Shown here: one piece after another, positions 59,171 to 62,869 of the stretch
How the letters are laid out: the number at the start of each line of letters is the position of its first letter
Numbering within the stretch: the stretch's first letter is position 1
Source of the DNA: Treponema sp.
GTDB taxonomy: Bacteria > Spirochaetota > Spirochaetia > Treponematales > Treponemataceae
Length of the DNA stretch: 64,000 bases
Assembly: GCF_024691105.1 (NCBI RefSeq)
Contig: NZ_JAILNY010000020.1
Direction: 5' to 3' (one strand)
Notes under the pieces: generated by a model
What the model saw: only the letters and a program-made list of their open reading frames with translations
What the model was told of the DNA's origin: nothing
The model's database searches: none
Made by a program: the position numbers and the translations under genes

Positions 59171-60976
59171 CTTCCAGCTTACCGCTTGTTTTCTTGAATC
59201 AATAAACCGCGCGTAAATACCTTTCTGTTTTACAAGAGCATTGTGCTTACCCTGCTCTGCGATACGGCCTTTGTCGATTACGACAATCTGATCAGCATTG
59301 CGTACAGTCTTAAGACGATGAGCAATCATAATTACAGTCTTTTCTTTTGTAAGTTCTTCGATTGCGTTCATAAGGTCGCGCTCGTTTTCTGGATCGACGT
59401 TGGCTGTTGCTTCGTCAAGAATAATGATTGGTGAATCTTTCATGATGGCACGTGCAATTGAAATGCGCTGTCTTTCTCCGCCGCTTAAAGATGCACCGCC
59501 TTCGCCGATTACGGTATCGTAGCCGTCCGGGAGTTTACTTATAAACTCGTGACAGCAGGCTTTTTTTGCCGCAGCGATTACCTTTGACATTGGAGCCTCT
59601 GGCTGGCCAAAGCGGATGTTGTTTGCGATTGTGTCATGGAAAAGATATACGTTCTGGAAAACAAAGCTGAAGTTTTTCATCAGGTCATCCATGCTGTAGT
59701 CTTTTACATCTTTTCCGCGGAGTAAAACTTTACCTGAGTCTACATCCCAGAAGCGAGAGAGAAGATGGCAGAAGGTTGTCTTTCCGCCGCCGCTTGGTCC
59801 AACGATTGCAGTTGTTGAATATTCTGGAATCGCAAGTGAAACATGATCGATGATTTTCTTTTTGTCGTAAGCAAAGTCGATGTTGTCGGCGACGATGAGC
59901 GCCGGGGTCTTAGGGGCAGCGCCCCTAGGAGAAAGGGGTGTCGGCGCAGCGGAGTGCGACGCAGGGGGAAGGCTTTCCCCCTCGCTACCCTCAATATCCA
60001 TCGTCGGCAATGCGAGAATTGCGCTGGCCTTTGAAACTCCGAGATCAATAGTGCGAAGAAGAGCAGAATAATTTCCGCCGGCCTCGAGCGCGTTAAAAAG
60101 CATAAACGAACAGACAAGCATTGTTGCACAGTCTGCAAGCGCCATCGTACCGGCAAGGTAAAAATAGAGCGACGCAATCATCATTGCAACGCCACTGAGT
60201 TTTGAAACGAGCGACTGAATATTAGAAACCGGAATGCAGCGCATTTCCATTTTGATGAGAGTCTTTTTGCGACGATTGATAACGTCATTTAATTCACGAC
60301 TGCGTTTTCCGACAAGATTGTAAGCCTTAACTTCTGCAATTCCCTGAATGTATTCAAGAACCTTACCGATCTCGGCAGCATCGTCACGGATTTTATCTGC
60401 AGAAATATTTTTTACAGCAAGGCGCATAAAAAGATTTACAAACTCAAAAAGACAAAAGCCCGCAAGCGCAACAAGTGCGATTCTCCAGTCAAAGAAAAAA
60501 AGCATTACGATGATAAGTGCGGTATCTAAAAGTCCCTGAAAGACCATCATTACTGCGCGGGTTGCAACATCGCCAACCGCTTCCATCGTGTTGGTAGTAA
60601 CTGATGTAATTTCGCCAAGACTGTTTTCGTTAAAGTAACCCATCGGAAGATAACGAAGATGCTCGGCAATTTCGATTCGTTTTTTTGCGCAGGTTCTGTA
60701 ACCGCCTTCGCACTGCCACATTGCGGTAACCTTACGTGTGACAATTCCTCCGAGAATGCTGACGAGCATAATTGCAAACGAAAGCCAGATTGTTTTTACT
60801 TCAAAAGGCTGTCCTTCGATTGCAGTTCCGATTACTCCGCGGAGCATAACAGCAACCGCTCCTATTCTAAGCGCCATAAAAAGCGAGTTAAGAATTCCAA
60901 CAAATATTGAACCGGTAAACTTTTTACGGTTTTCTTCATCACAGAATTTAAAAAATTTTATTAACGTTCCAAACAT
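59165..60976 (-). CDS. ABC transporter TMD-NBD half (YbtQ/IrtB-like), carries in-frame repeat
   Basis: GPSGGGKT, LSGGERQRISIARA, LDEATA; AAGGAG RBS before 60976. Confidence 0.92.
   Translation of the reverse strand: MFGTLIKFFKFCDEENRKKFTGSIFVGILNSLFMALRIGAVAVMLRGVIGTAIEGQPFEVKTIWLSFAIMLVSILGGIVTRKVTAMWQCEGGYRTCAKKRIEIAEHLRYLPMGYFNENSLGEITSVTTNTMEAVGDVATRAVMMVFQGLLDTALIIVMLFFFDWRIALVALAGFCLFEFVNLFMRLAVKNISADKIRDDAAEIGKVLEYIQGIAEVKAYNLVGKRSRELNDVINRRKKTLIKMEMRCIPVSNIQSLVSKLSGVAMMIASLYFYLAGTMALADCATMLVCSFMLFNALEAGGNYSALLRTIDLGVSKASAILALPTMDIEGSEGESLPPASHSAAPTPLSPRGAAPKTPALIVADNIDFAYDKKKIIDHVSLAIPEYSTTAIVGPSGGGKTTFCHLLSRFWDVDSGKVLLRGKDVKDYSMDDLMKNFSFVFQNVYLFHDTIANNIRFGQPEAPMSKVIAAAKKACCHEFISKLPDGYDTVIGEGGASLSGGERQRISIARAIMKDSPIIILDEATANVDPENERDLMNAIEELTKEKTVIMIAHRLKTVRNADQIVVIDKGRIAEQGKHNALVKQKGIYARFIDSRKQAVSWKL
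59902..59992. repeat. GC-rich double-hairpin repeat, copy C (in-frame in CDS)
   Basis: TAGGGGC-AGC-GCCCCTA ... AGGGGGAAGGCTTTCCCCCT; encodes SEGESLPPASHSAAPTPLSPRGAAPKTPA. Confidence 0.85.
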
Positions 60977-61024
60977 AAAATCTCCTTTTCCAGCGCGGCT
61001 CAAGCGCCGCCACATAAGTCCGCT

Positions 61025-62869
61025 TTATTCATCGCGTGAACCGATATGTGCTTCCCACATTTTTTTGTACAAGCCACCGCGTTTTGTAAGCAGCTTTTCG
61101 TGTGTTCCGCATGAATCAATCTTTCCGTCTTTAATTACATAAAGCATGTCTGCATCTTTTACAGTAGAAAGACGATGCGCAATTACAATCAGTGTTTTTC
61201 CTTTTACAAGCTGTGCAACTGATTTTTGAATAATCGCTTCGTTTTCTGGATCTGTGTATGCAGTTGCTTCATCAAGAATTACGATTGGTGCATCTTTCAT
61301 CATAGCGCGGGCAATGGCAATTCGTTGACGTTCACCGCCGCTTAAGTGAGCACCGCTTCCGCCGACAATCGTATCAAAGCCTTTTTCAAGTGATTTTATA
61401 AAATCATAACAGCCGGCTTTGCGCGTGATGTCTTCTACTTCGCGGTCTGTTGCATTTGGTCTGCCAAGTCTGATATTTTCGCGGACACTCATATCAAATA
61501 AGAAGTTATCCTGGCTTACGTAAGCGACGCGGCGGTTATATTCTTCGAGTGAAAGATCTTTTATGTTTACGCCACCAATTTCTATAGAGCCTGAATCGAC
61601 ATCCCACAAAGAAGCGATAAGGCGCGCGATTGTAGATTTACCCGAACCGCTTGGTCCGACAAAGGCGGTATATGAGCCCTGAGGGAGCGTCATGCTGATG
61701 CCGTGTAAGATTTCAGAATCGCACGGGGGCGTTGCGGGGGTGTCCCCCGCAGAAGGGGGTGTCGGCGCAACGGAGTGCGACGCAGGGGGAAGGCTTTCCC
61801 CCGCCTTGTGATATGAGAAGTGCACATCTTTCAGAACAATCGAGTTATCGGCCGGAGTCTTAACGTCAACTGCCGGACGCTCAAGTTCAGGAAGATTCAT
61901 GATTGAACCAACTTCACCAAAAATTGCGCCGGCTTTTGCAATATCATCGTGGTAAGTAAAGGCAATCAAAAACGGCTGAATCGCAGAAACTGCAAGAACA
62001 ATCACCGTGATAAAAAGCGAGGCATCAATCGAACCGCGCAAAAACATAAAGCCGCCGATCGGCAAAAGAGAAAGAAGCAGCGACGGTGTTACAACTGTTG
62101 CAACGGCATGAGGCCAGATGCAGTCACGCATCCATTCAACATAACAGGCAGAGCCTTCCTGAGCGGCAACAACAAACCGCTCGTAGCTCGATTTTGATTT
62201 TCCAAAAGCCTTGATTACTTCGATACCATTGATGTACTCAACGGCAGTATCATTTAAGGCCTTTGTTTTTTCAAGCGCATAATTAAAACGCGCAGTTCCA
62301 TCTTTAAACATAAAACACATCGCAACAAATCCGATCGGAAGTGTTGCCATACATGCAAGAGCAAGACGCCAGTCTAAAACAAAAAGATACGCAACAAGTG
62401 CAATCGAAAGAATGATGTTTGAAGTATATTCTGGAACGATATGCGCAAGAGTTGTTTCCATACTGTCGATACGTTCAATCATTATGCTTTTAAGTGAACC
62501 TGACGGCATATCAAGAACAGTTCCCAGCGGCACACGCGTAAGTTTATCGCACATTCGTTTACGGATATTCCCGAGCAGGTTGAATGTTGCAATGTGGCTC
62601 ATGCTTGTTGAAATTGCATGGAACAAAACATTACCCGCCCAGAACGCTGCGGTAATTCCACACTCTTTTAAAAAGAGATTCCAGTCGCGGACTCCAGACA
62701 ATAGCTGCTGAACAATACGCGCAATGATAAAATACGGTGCGATGCAGCATGCAACACTCAATAAAGCAAAAAATACGCTGACAATGTACTGACTTTTTTT
62801 CTCTCCTGCAAAATATGCGATCCAGCCGATAAGGCCGCGTTTTGCAGGTCCTGTACTTTTGTTTGACAT
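61025..62869 (-). CDS. ABC transporter TMD-NBD half (YbtP/IrtA-like), carries in-frame repeat
   Basis: [28 protein letters not shown]. Confidence 0.92.
   Translation of the reverse strand: MSNKSTGPAKRGLIGWIAYFAGEKKSQYIVSVFFALLSVACCIAPYFIIARIVQQLLSGVRDWNLFLKECGITAAFWAGNVLFHAISTSMSHIATFNLLGNIRKRMCDKLTRVPLGTVLDMPSGSLKSIMIERIDSMETTLAHIVPEYTSNIILSIALVAYLFVLDWRLALACMATLPIGFVAMCFMFKDGTARFNYALEKTKALNDTAVEYINGIEVIKAFGKSKSSYERFVVAAQEGSACYVEWMRDCIWPHAVATVVTPSLLLSLLPIGGFMFLRGSIDASLFITVIVLAVSAIQPFLIAFTYHDDIAKAGAIFGEVGSIMNLPELERPAVDVKTPADNSIVLKDVHFSYHKAGESLPPASHSVAPTPPSAGDTPATPPCDSEILHGISMTLPQGSYTAFVGPSGSGKSTIARLIASLWDVDSGSIEIGGVNIKDLSLEEYNRRVAYVSQDNFLFDMSVRENIRLGRPNATDREVEDITRKAGCYDFIKSLEKGFDTIVGGSGAHLSGGERQRIAIARAMMKDAPIVILDEATAYTDPENEAIIQKSVAQLVKGKTLIVIAHRLSTVKDADMLYVIKDGKIDSCGTHEKLLTKRGGLYKKMWEAHIGSRDE
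61724..61802. repeat. GC-rich double-hairpin repeat, copy B (in-frame in CDS)
   Basis: TGCGGGGG-TGT-CCCCCGCA ... GGGGGAAGGCTTTCCCCC; encodes GESLPPASHSVAPTPPSAGDTPATPP. Confidence 0.85.

Follow-up and report, generated by a model that had tools for sequence, protein, structure and literature searches.

A GC-rich three-hairpin repeat carried in-frame by an ABC transporter gene pair of a rumen Treponema: probably a selfish mobile element, with copies in Fibrobacter and Alphaproteobacteria

The 64,000-nucleotide stretch of DNA analysed here (called the window throughout) belongs to Treponema sp. (NCBI RefSeq assembly GCF_024691105.1, contig NZ_JAILNY010000020.1) and carries three copies of a short GC-rich palindromic repeat, which we call E1. 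Copies A and B are inserted in-frame in two adjacent genes for half-transporters of the ATP-binding cassette (ABC) type, whereas copy C is intergenic. The gltB and purF proteins encoded in the window are 74-87% identical to the versions in Treponema metagenome-assembled genomes, and the window is that of a rumen Treponema. The genes and E1 copies are as follows (scores in bits are from a covariance model of the family; TMD, transmembrane domain; NBD, nucleotide-binding domain; H1 to H3, hairpins).

59165..60976, minus strand: ABC half-transporter gene 1 (ABC_membrane and ABC_tran), with E1 in the TMD-NBD linker, 7 residues ahead of DNIDFAY
61025..62869, minus strand: ABC half-transporter gene 2 (ABC_membrane and ABC_tran), with E1 right after the A-loop Tyr (FSYHK^...^EILHG)
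59903..59981, plus strand: E1 copy A, 78-nt core at 59904-59981, 68.7 bits
61724..61802, plus strand: E1 copy B, 78-nt core at 61725-61802 preceded by C, 102.9 bits
61732-61740/61744-61752, 61763-61769/61776-61782 and 61785-61791/61796-61802: H1, H2 and H3 of E1 copy B
24927..25001, plus strand: E1 copy C, 74 nt (24928-25001), with the type-2 middle hairpin GCGAGCAACACAGTGCGAGC, 70.2 bits

The G-rich strand is the plus strand in all three copies and is antisense to the host genes. Copy A is accordingly read as EGESLPPASHSAAPTPLSPRGAAPKTP in gene 1 and copy B as AGESLPPASHSVAPTPPSAGDTPATPP in gene 2, both giving the peptide GESLPPASHS(A/V)APTP (in protein context ...EGSEGESLPPASHSAAPTPLSPRGAAPKTPALIVADNIDFAY... 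and ...FSYHKAGESLPPASHSVAPTPPSAGDTPATPPCDSEILHG...). Copy C lies between the stop of a permease gene (25011) and the start of an ATPase gene (24909) in an amino-acid ABC operon transcribed from the minus strand. The 78-nt stretches in the two ABC genes have a GC content of 71-74%, the window average being about 40%, and share a 47-nt core (59935-59981 and 61756-61802, with 0 and 1 mismatch) for which shuffled sequence leads one to expect 0.00 matches. A 17-nt motif occurs at exactly three sites of the window, including 24975-24991, where 0.15 are expected, and with its filters switched off the covariance model reports three full E1 copies in the 64 kb and no more.

A preliminary description of this DNA had already reported the two in-frame copies in the same frame and orientation, their near-identical peptides and their positions relative to the A-loops, and all of this is borne out, as is its intergenic third copy, picked up by the 17-nt motif as well as by the covariance model, the latter placing it at 24928-25001. 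Its start for protein 1 (60976) agrees with the orthologues, which all begin MF.TLIKFF; the start at 61015 in the list of open reading frames is overlong. One relation has to be turned round: the flank of copy C was said to be the reverse complement of the interior of copy A, but it is copy A that is flanked by CTCGCTACCC (59982-59991), which is complementary to the interior of copy C. Because CTCGCTACCC is host coding sequence (E-G-S-E), in whose place E1-free orthologues have GAGGGTAGGGA, this complementarity is probably coincidence.

The element had also been described as a double hairpin, but single-sequence folds and the family alignment give three. A 5' G-run is followed by H1 (9 bp, loops mostly of 3-4 nt), a linker of AGAA and a G-run, H2 (seven positions with a conserved G.A/A.G internal loop and an AACGNAG loop) and H3 (GGGGGAA-GGCT-TTCCCCC). 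The sequence of H1 varies among the window copies, copy A having the variant TAGGGGC/GCCCCTA, while pairing is retained, as had been noticed before, and the loops of H1 and H2 accommodate extra stem-loops and entire nested elements. In 90 copies aligned to the covariance model R1, an alignment that is itself fitted to the model, standard pairs are formed by 91.8% of the cells, compared with 76.8% after shuffling and 48.8-66.7% when the pairing partners are slid. Compensatory change is seen in 17 of the 23 pairs (10.8 shuffled, 5-7 slid) and change on both sides in 278 cells (93 shuffled, with none of 500 shuffles reaching 278; at most 40 slid). E1 loops include triloops and mini-hairpins of the GCGAAGC type, the latter being a motif known for stable folding in DNA.

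Contigs from four independent public metagenome runs span the joints between element and flank at both ABC sites, and loose contig ends in these runs place the left boundary of E1 at 59903/4 and 61724/5. The inserts are therefore no assembly artefact, a possibility raised in the preliminary description and countered by independent assemblies that match the sequence. In protein 2, the insert of copy B lies between the predicted strands 347-355 and 386-395; AlphaFold2 renders it as coil between two strands, in a poor model from a shallow alignment with a mean pLDDT of only 45. The insertion sites are loops of variable length among orthologues, and the insert peptides presumably exist and sit on the protein surface.

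E1 is not confined to the window. A strict 23-base pattern run on the GTDB species-representative genomes found it at 57 loci, nearly all in rumen or gut Treponema and Fibrobacter, including the cultured strains T. ruminis RU1 and T. porcinum. The match in Synergistaceae (n = 1) looks like chance, and two matches under other labels have flanks identical to each other. With the covariance model, 90 copies were found in about 0.6 Mb of related DNA. Host genes confirmed by Pfam encode GltB, ABC-F, MnmE, an OppC/D fusion, DUF763, a B12 radical-SAM enzyme, PurF, a DNA methylase (on a Fibrobacter contig), CarA and CarB. Altogether, E1 occupies at least 16 distinct in-frame sites in conserved proteins, in both orientations and in more than 10 unrelated host genes. 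A 31-residue E1 peptide query against 1.84 billion representative proteins gave 0 matches, and literature searches returned no account of the E1 family.

The coding copies are strongly constrained in frame and length. The GES... frame (G-E-S-L-P-P..., GESLPPASHSVAPTPPS...) is the one used at each of the 10 distinct antisense sites, which for these sites alone has a chance of about (1/3)^9, and all six sense sites end in ...SP (GG.G...CDAGGRLSP). This bias is not a stop-codon effect, because copy B is free of stop codons in all six frames; the unused frames are rich in Arg or Cys, and the bias reflects either amino-acid content or the phase of insertion. The canonical coding copy has 78 nt (26 codons), and about 19 of 27 coding copies are a multiple of three long when their ends are set by a crude boundary rule; intergenic copies are spread over the three length classes (11/14/21). 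Constraints of this kind on frame and length are strong indirect evidence for translation of the insert and speak against its excision or ribosomal bypass.

A metagenome scan with protein 2 yielded 80 orthologous operons at 70-89% identity, and most of these lack the two E1 inserts, so that empty orthologous sites, a check that had been proposed, are now defined both in the TMD-NBD linker of protein 1 (site A) and behind the A-loop of protein 2 (site B). The commonest form of site B is FSYHK-GIEGEEKK-EILHG and the minimal one FGYKD-K-EILHG. In other operons, the site contains E1 with the window-type or with a different middle hairpin, E1 with a nested element of a second family (E2), longer composites, unrelated palindromic elements or truncated relics. 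Site A shows the same range of states, with a minimal form of 78 nt, and minimal empty forms free of relics are present in loci L113, L115 and L134. At the junction of genes 1 and 2, many lineages have a TAATG overlap, and others have E1 in sense orientation or further hairpin families. The exact points of insertion shift by a few codons from lineage to lineage. The preliminary description had allowed that orthologues might carry the peptides throughout, with no wider repeat family; the operons, most of which lack the peptides, and the 57 loci and 90 copies speak against this.

Similar states are found in other genes. One PurF loop is empty in the window but holds a sense E1 in L022 and an antisense E1 in L055, and the GltB site, likewise without E1 in the window, has been filled in L006. 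ABC-F proteins have E1 in a loop homologous to site B, and OppC/D fusions have it in a linker resembling site A. Recurrent filling across lineages and ABC families thus indicates that a few permissive loops are hit repeatedly. Internally deleted or truncated relics of E1, such as GCGGGGGCATTGCGGGGGGAGACTTCCCCC at the gene junction (L111, ~5259-5310) and KGKDSSSLQPDSELNS at site B (proteins P0037 and P0053), point to decay by deletion between G-runs.

The same sites are shared with other hairpin families. E2 is a multi-hairpin family (TAGGGAGCGACC...GTTTTTAGCGAGTCTC...GCGAAGGCGG) that is also present in the window, with a copy near-identical to the one that L099 has at site A:

24045..24128, plus strand: E2 copy in the ATPase/binding-protein intergenic gap of the same amino-acid ABC operon as E1 copy C

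E2 is nested exactly in the H1 loop of E1 in L056 (3085-3160), L014 (7830-7925), L064, L127 and L135 and exactly in the H2 loop in L055 (7275-7355); L128 also shows E2 nested in E1. Composites of E1 and E2 inside genes are still read through, as in the ABC-F gene of T. ruminis RU1 and in CarB. A third family, E3, consists of an outer stem (TCACACGGATTCGA / TCGAATCCGTGTGA) around inner hairpins and was not found in the window. It occupies site B in L062, L090, L117, L125 and L126, including cultured T. bryantii (protein P0026), and adjoins E1 on plasmid pTS1 of T. saccharophilum (L140, 2414-2496) and in L022 (~3745-3785). At least five more hairpin families are found at sites A and B and the junction (L059, L061, L067, L069-L079, L091, L094, L105, L112), with the translations HPELVSGS/MLKQVQHD, PEPVEG/LRQAQG, VIASEAKQS...LLAMT-like, PGLTRGS and TEDTE/SVSSV; they resemble repeats of a kind present in many phyla. 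A 25-nt hairpin (GGTGGTTTCGACAGGCTCAACCACC) sits at the same site A codons in opposite orientations in L070 and L085, which suggests either inversion of the hairpin or independent insertion. Finally, E1 itself forms head-to-head pairs separated by 5-6 nt in L041 (4150-4231, minus, and 4236-4316, plus; within the CarA reading frame) and L129 (8263-8347, minus, and 8353-8432, plus).

Outside Treponema and Fibrobacter, E1 is found in Alphaproteobacteria. A blastn search of PLSDB returned it from plasmids and chromids of Alphaproteobacteria, with 77-86% identity along some 78 nt, and also from T. saccharophilum pTS1. In five replicons (L138, L139, L141, L142 and L145; two from Paracoccus versutus, the others from Ketogulonicigenium vulgare, Shinella and Niveispirillum), E1 is situated some 85 nt upstream of a gene for an ArdC-like protein. 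Identity among these ArdC proteins is 79-84%, the flank is conserved, and genes for DUF2958 and ParB-like proteins are located beside them. The G-rich strand of E1 is the template strand of ardC, and the middle hairpin differs among the orthologous sites through compensatory substitutions. In Phenylobacterium (L143), E1 adjoins a toprim gene. No E1 was found in viral contigs or a phage collection. Plasmid pTS1 also has a weak, sub-threshold match to the abiF RNA (L140, 487-528; 26.2 bits, gathering score 37) in a region that encodes Fic, GxxExxY and ATP-binding proteins.

The two window genes that carry copies A and B form a heterodimeric exporter-fold pair flanked by LysR and TetR regulator genes. 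Neither reached an NCBIfam equivalog cut-off, an exact look-up of protein 2 gave no record, and among the named homologues of protein 2 those closest to it come from Treponema sp. and T. bryantii. Their junction (60977-61024) contains one further feature:

60993..61011, minus strand: small GC hairpin GGCGGCGCTTGAGCCGCGC

Judged by its resemblance to the loop extension GGCGGCGTTTGAGCC in H1 of some copies, this hairpin may be a relic of E1. The window also has a 36-nt Gly-rich tandem repeat inside a gene (41011-41082) and, between gltB and a binding-protein gene, a terminator-like, near-perfect palindrome of 28 nt (22963-23020).

Taken together, E1 has been inserted repeatedly and independently, is present or absent at orthologous sites, is filtered for frame and length, keeps a conserved fold and is spread across phyla. 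We consider it probable that E1, with its roughly 78 nt and three hairpins, is a GC-rich mobile repeat, selfish and non-autonomous, that colonises the genomes of rumen and gut Treponema and Fibrobacter. Nearly all coding copies that survive would have a length that is a multiple of 3 nt, be read in the one benign frame of their orientation and lie in a loop that tolerates extra residues, and they would be carried through transcription and translation into the host protein. The ABC pair would in this way gain 26-residue loops rich in Pro, Ser, Ala and Gly, one in the TMD-NBD linker and one in the beta1-beta2 turn after the A-loop. Given the nesting and the composites with other elements, a loop that has received one hairpin element may become a landing pad for others.

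Several observations weigh against E1 being such a mobile repeat. Among 83 distinct copies, the length distribution of flanking direct repeats equals that of the shuffled control, so that the target duplications sought at the suggestion of the preliminary description do not emerge, and terminal inverted repeats do not go beyond G5/C5. No transposase or other mobilising enzyme was identified, the window not having been screened systematically for one. At the GltB joint, E1 replaces 15 nt and is not a plain addition, and a filled and an empty site similar enough to give the exact joint were not found. Copy number seems low in two cultured strains, with two strict-pattern matches on the chromosome of T. 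ruminis RU1 and one blastn match on T. saccharophilum pTS1. The better folding of the G-rich strand compared with the C-rich one may be compositional. Lastly, the compensatory substitutions suggest that the E1 structure upstream of ardC is kept in place by selection, which is not expected of a purely selfish, decaying insert.

Flanks of the 83 copies favour C at -1 (57/83), T at +1 (63/83) and C at +2 (48/83), the 3' flank being G-poor and T-rich. GC skew around 57 copies, a proxy for the replication strand, is positive for 37 and negative for 20, the window copies lying on the negative-skew strand. No related autonomous insertion sequence (IS) with the same ends was noticed among 145 loci, whole genomes not having been scanned. 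An architecture defined by hairpins, triloops and mini-hairpins, and the lack of terminal inverted repeats and target-site duplications, put E1 nearest to single-stranded-DNA elements, namely repetitive extragenic palindromes (REP) with their REP-associated tyrosine transposases (RAYT), the IS200/IS605 family and relaxase substrates. Tentatively, and as the best of several poor options, E1 may thus move as folded single-stranded DNA, handled in trans by an enzyme that recognises hairpins, for instance an HUH/Y1 transposase or a relaxase.

The position upstream of ardC opens another way of looking at E1, which we regard as unlikely. E1 would be a functional single-stranded nucleic-acid module of conjugative elements (for instance a site recognised by an enzyme, or a signal for priming or early expression) that is kept upstream of ardC, and the chromosomal copies would be by-products of strand transfer, made by the relaxase, primase or HUH nuclease that recognises the hairpins there. 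The location in five replicons and beside toprim, the covariation of the middle hairpin at the orthologous ardC spot and the GCGAAGC-type mini-hairpins all agree with such a role; the G-rich strand lies on the ardC template, as a transferred-strand signal would presumably need, and the conserved unpaired G-runs and the G.A internal loop suggest recognition by a protein. However, the five sites are orthologous and may go back to one old insertion, no -35/-10-like sequence is visible, and neither the phage nor the viral collection contained E1. Moreover, no link of the Treponema and Fibrobacter copies to conjugative genes emerged, tblastn with alphaproteobacterial ArdC and DUF2958 giving no match in any of the Treponema and Fibrobacter loci examined, and copies occur in both gene orientations and on strands of either sign of GC skew. 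If this reading were true, the conjugation apparatus would seed peptide loops in housekeeping proteins of three phyla, with each first insert a landing pad for a guild of hairpin elements.

It is rather improbable that the occupied loops are hot spots that each received one old insert, later overwritten by gene conversion or by nesting and deletion, with far fewer true transpositions than the number of states implies. E1 subtypes, composites and unrelated hairpin families do share the same few codons in orthologues, and the precise placement of E2 in E1 hairpin loops, the E3 elements adjoining E1 in L140 and L022, the head-to-head pairs in L041 and L129 and the two orientations of the 25-nt hairpin at site A fit such overwriting. 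But insertion points vary by a few codons, the PurF loop has E1 both ways, the minimal forms in L113, L115 and L134 bear no relic, and at least 16 sites in more than 10 unrelated genes still require primary insertions.

There is very little to be said for E1 being cut from the message like an intron or bypassed during translation in the manner of T4 gene 60 or the Magnusiomyces mitochondrial byps, which would leave the proteins unaltered. GC-rich hairpin inserts in AT-rich coding DNA do resemble bypass elements (bioRxiv 10.1101/2022.08.31.505936), yet most coding copies are a multiple of three long, all those checked use a single frame per orientation and all lie within long open reading frames that span them, properties that would not be selected if the insert were never read. 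Tolerance of the insert in both orientations would not be expected of an RNA-level signal, and contigs from runs labelled RNA-Seq, ambiguous libraries that may contain DNA, retain E1. That the inserts are an ancestral transporter linker or an assembly artefact is next to impossible, as most orthologues lack them, the same DNA is found in genes and in phyla that are unrelated, and four runs cross the joints.

To our knowledge, hardly any selfish DNA other than Rickettsia palindromic elements (RPEs) routinely persists within conserved protein genes of bacteria, and with E1 an RPE-like behaviour is found in free-living gut bacteria of other phyla. E1 offers the cleaner natural experiment, with dozens of orthologous operons in empty, filled, nested and decayed states, one frame per orientation and homologous loops hit in different ABC families, so that it can be measured which protein loops bear 26 extra residues and how new disordered segments arise. 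The cross-phylum spread and the conserved conjugative position point to a hairpin-handling enzyme, and cultured hosts are available in T. ruminis RU1, T. bryantii, T. saccharophilum and Paracoccus versutus. New here are the occurrence of E1 across phyla including the ardC spot, the same loops being hit by several unrelated families and the nesting of elements in E1 hairpin loops.

Among known systems, RPEs are about 100-150 bp long and AT-rich, whereas E1 has 78 nt and 70-75% GC in genomes of 40% GC. Like RPEs, E1 is a short palindromic repeat found in-frame in unrelated conserved genes as well as between genes, with a family-specific peptide and no known transposase (Ogata et al, 2000, Science 290:347; review PMC10969869), and its conserved peptide recurs in-frame at no fewer than 16 coding sites in unrelated reading frames. 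In contrast to RPEs, it is read in both orientations with one frame each, spans Spirochaetota, Fibrobacterota and Alphaproteobacteria and has a strongly covarying three-hairpin fold. Set against the description of RPEs, these differences in size, GC content and host range lead us to treat E1 as an analogue and not a member. The RPE-like selfish family in a spirochaete that the preliminary description envisaged is thus supported as an in-frame family, but it extends to Fibrobacter and Alphaproteobacteria and is probably not homologous to RPEs.

REP sequences, the bacterial interspersed mosaic elements (BIME) built from them and the palindrome-associated elements derived from IS200/IS605 (PATE) are also defined by hairpins, lack target duplications and terminal inverted repeats, include head-to-head pairs (BIME) and likely pass through a single-stranded form. 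REP sequences, however, are by definition extragenic and consist of one hairpin of 20-40 nt with GTAG on its 5' side; E1, with 78 nt, three hairpins and many intragenic copies, is neither REP nor BIME (a RAYT gene was not searched for). With IS200/IS605-derived elements, E1 shares hairpins and the absence of target-site duplications, but no particular target tetranucleotide emerged from the flanks (no search for TnpA was made). Nor is E1 a classical miniature inverted-repeat transposable element, as its ends share only G5...C5 and target-site duplications are absent.

Several RNA and recombination elements were considered as well. Rfam 15 gave no match to the window at the gathering threshold, and its E-value mode gave sub-threshold look-alikes only. 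The best of these, Clostridiales-2 (RF02937) and D12-methyl (RF02950), share with E1 the order hairpin, GGGUG, hairpin and AGGGGGAA, but scores of 20.3, 9.8 and 10.7 bits stay well short of the gathering scores of 58.6 and 57, so that E1 belongs to neither. ARAGORN found no tRNA or tmRNA in the window or in L138-L140. An integron attC site is not indicated, since none of GTTGCGG, GTTACGG and TTTTAGG matches GTTRRRY and cassette arrays are absent.

In mitochondria, the double-hairpin elements of Allomyces are comparable, and in yeast var1 GC clusters lie in-frame in a protein gene. The resemblance extends to the way in which GC-rich hairpin modules invade AT-richer genomes and nest in each other (yeast mitochondrial GC clusters, PMC4478555; sponge repetitive hairpin-forming elements, PMC2800124), although those elements are organellar and E1 is bacterial, chromosomal and, in Alphaproteobacteria, located on conjugative replicons. 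Measured against these systems, E1 is a palindromic repeat tolerated in-frame that is distinguished by its covarying three-hairpin fold, coding in both orientations, a range across phyla and a possibly functional conjugative copy.

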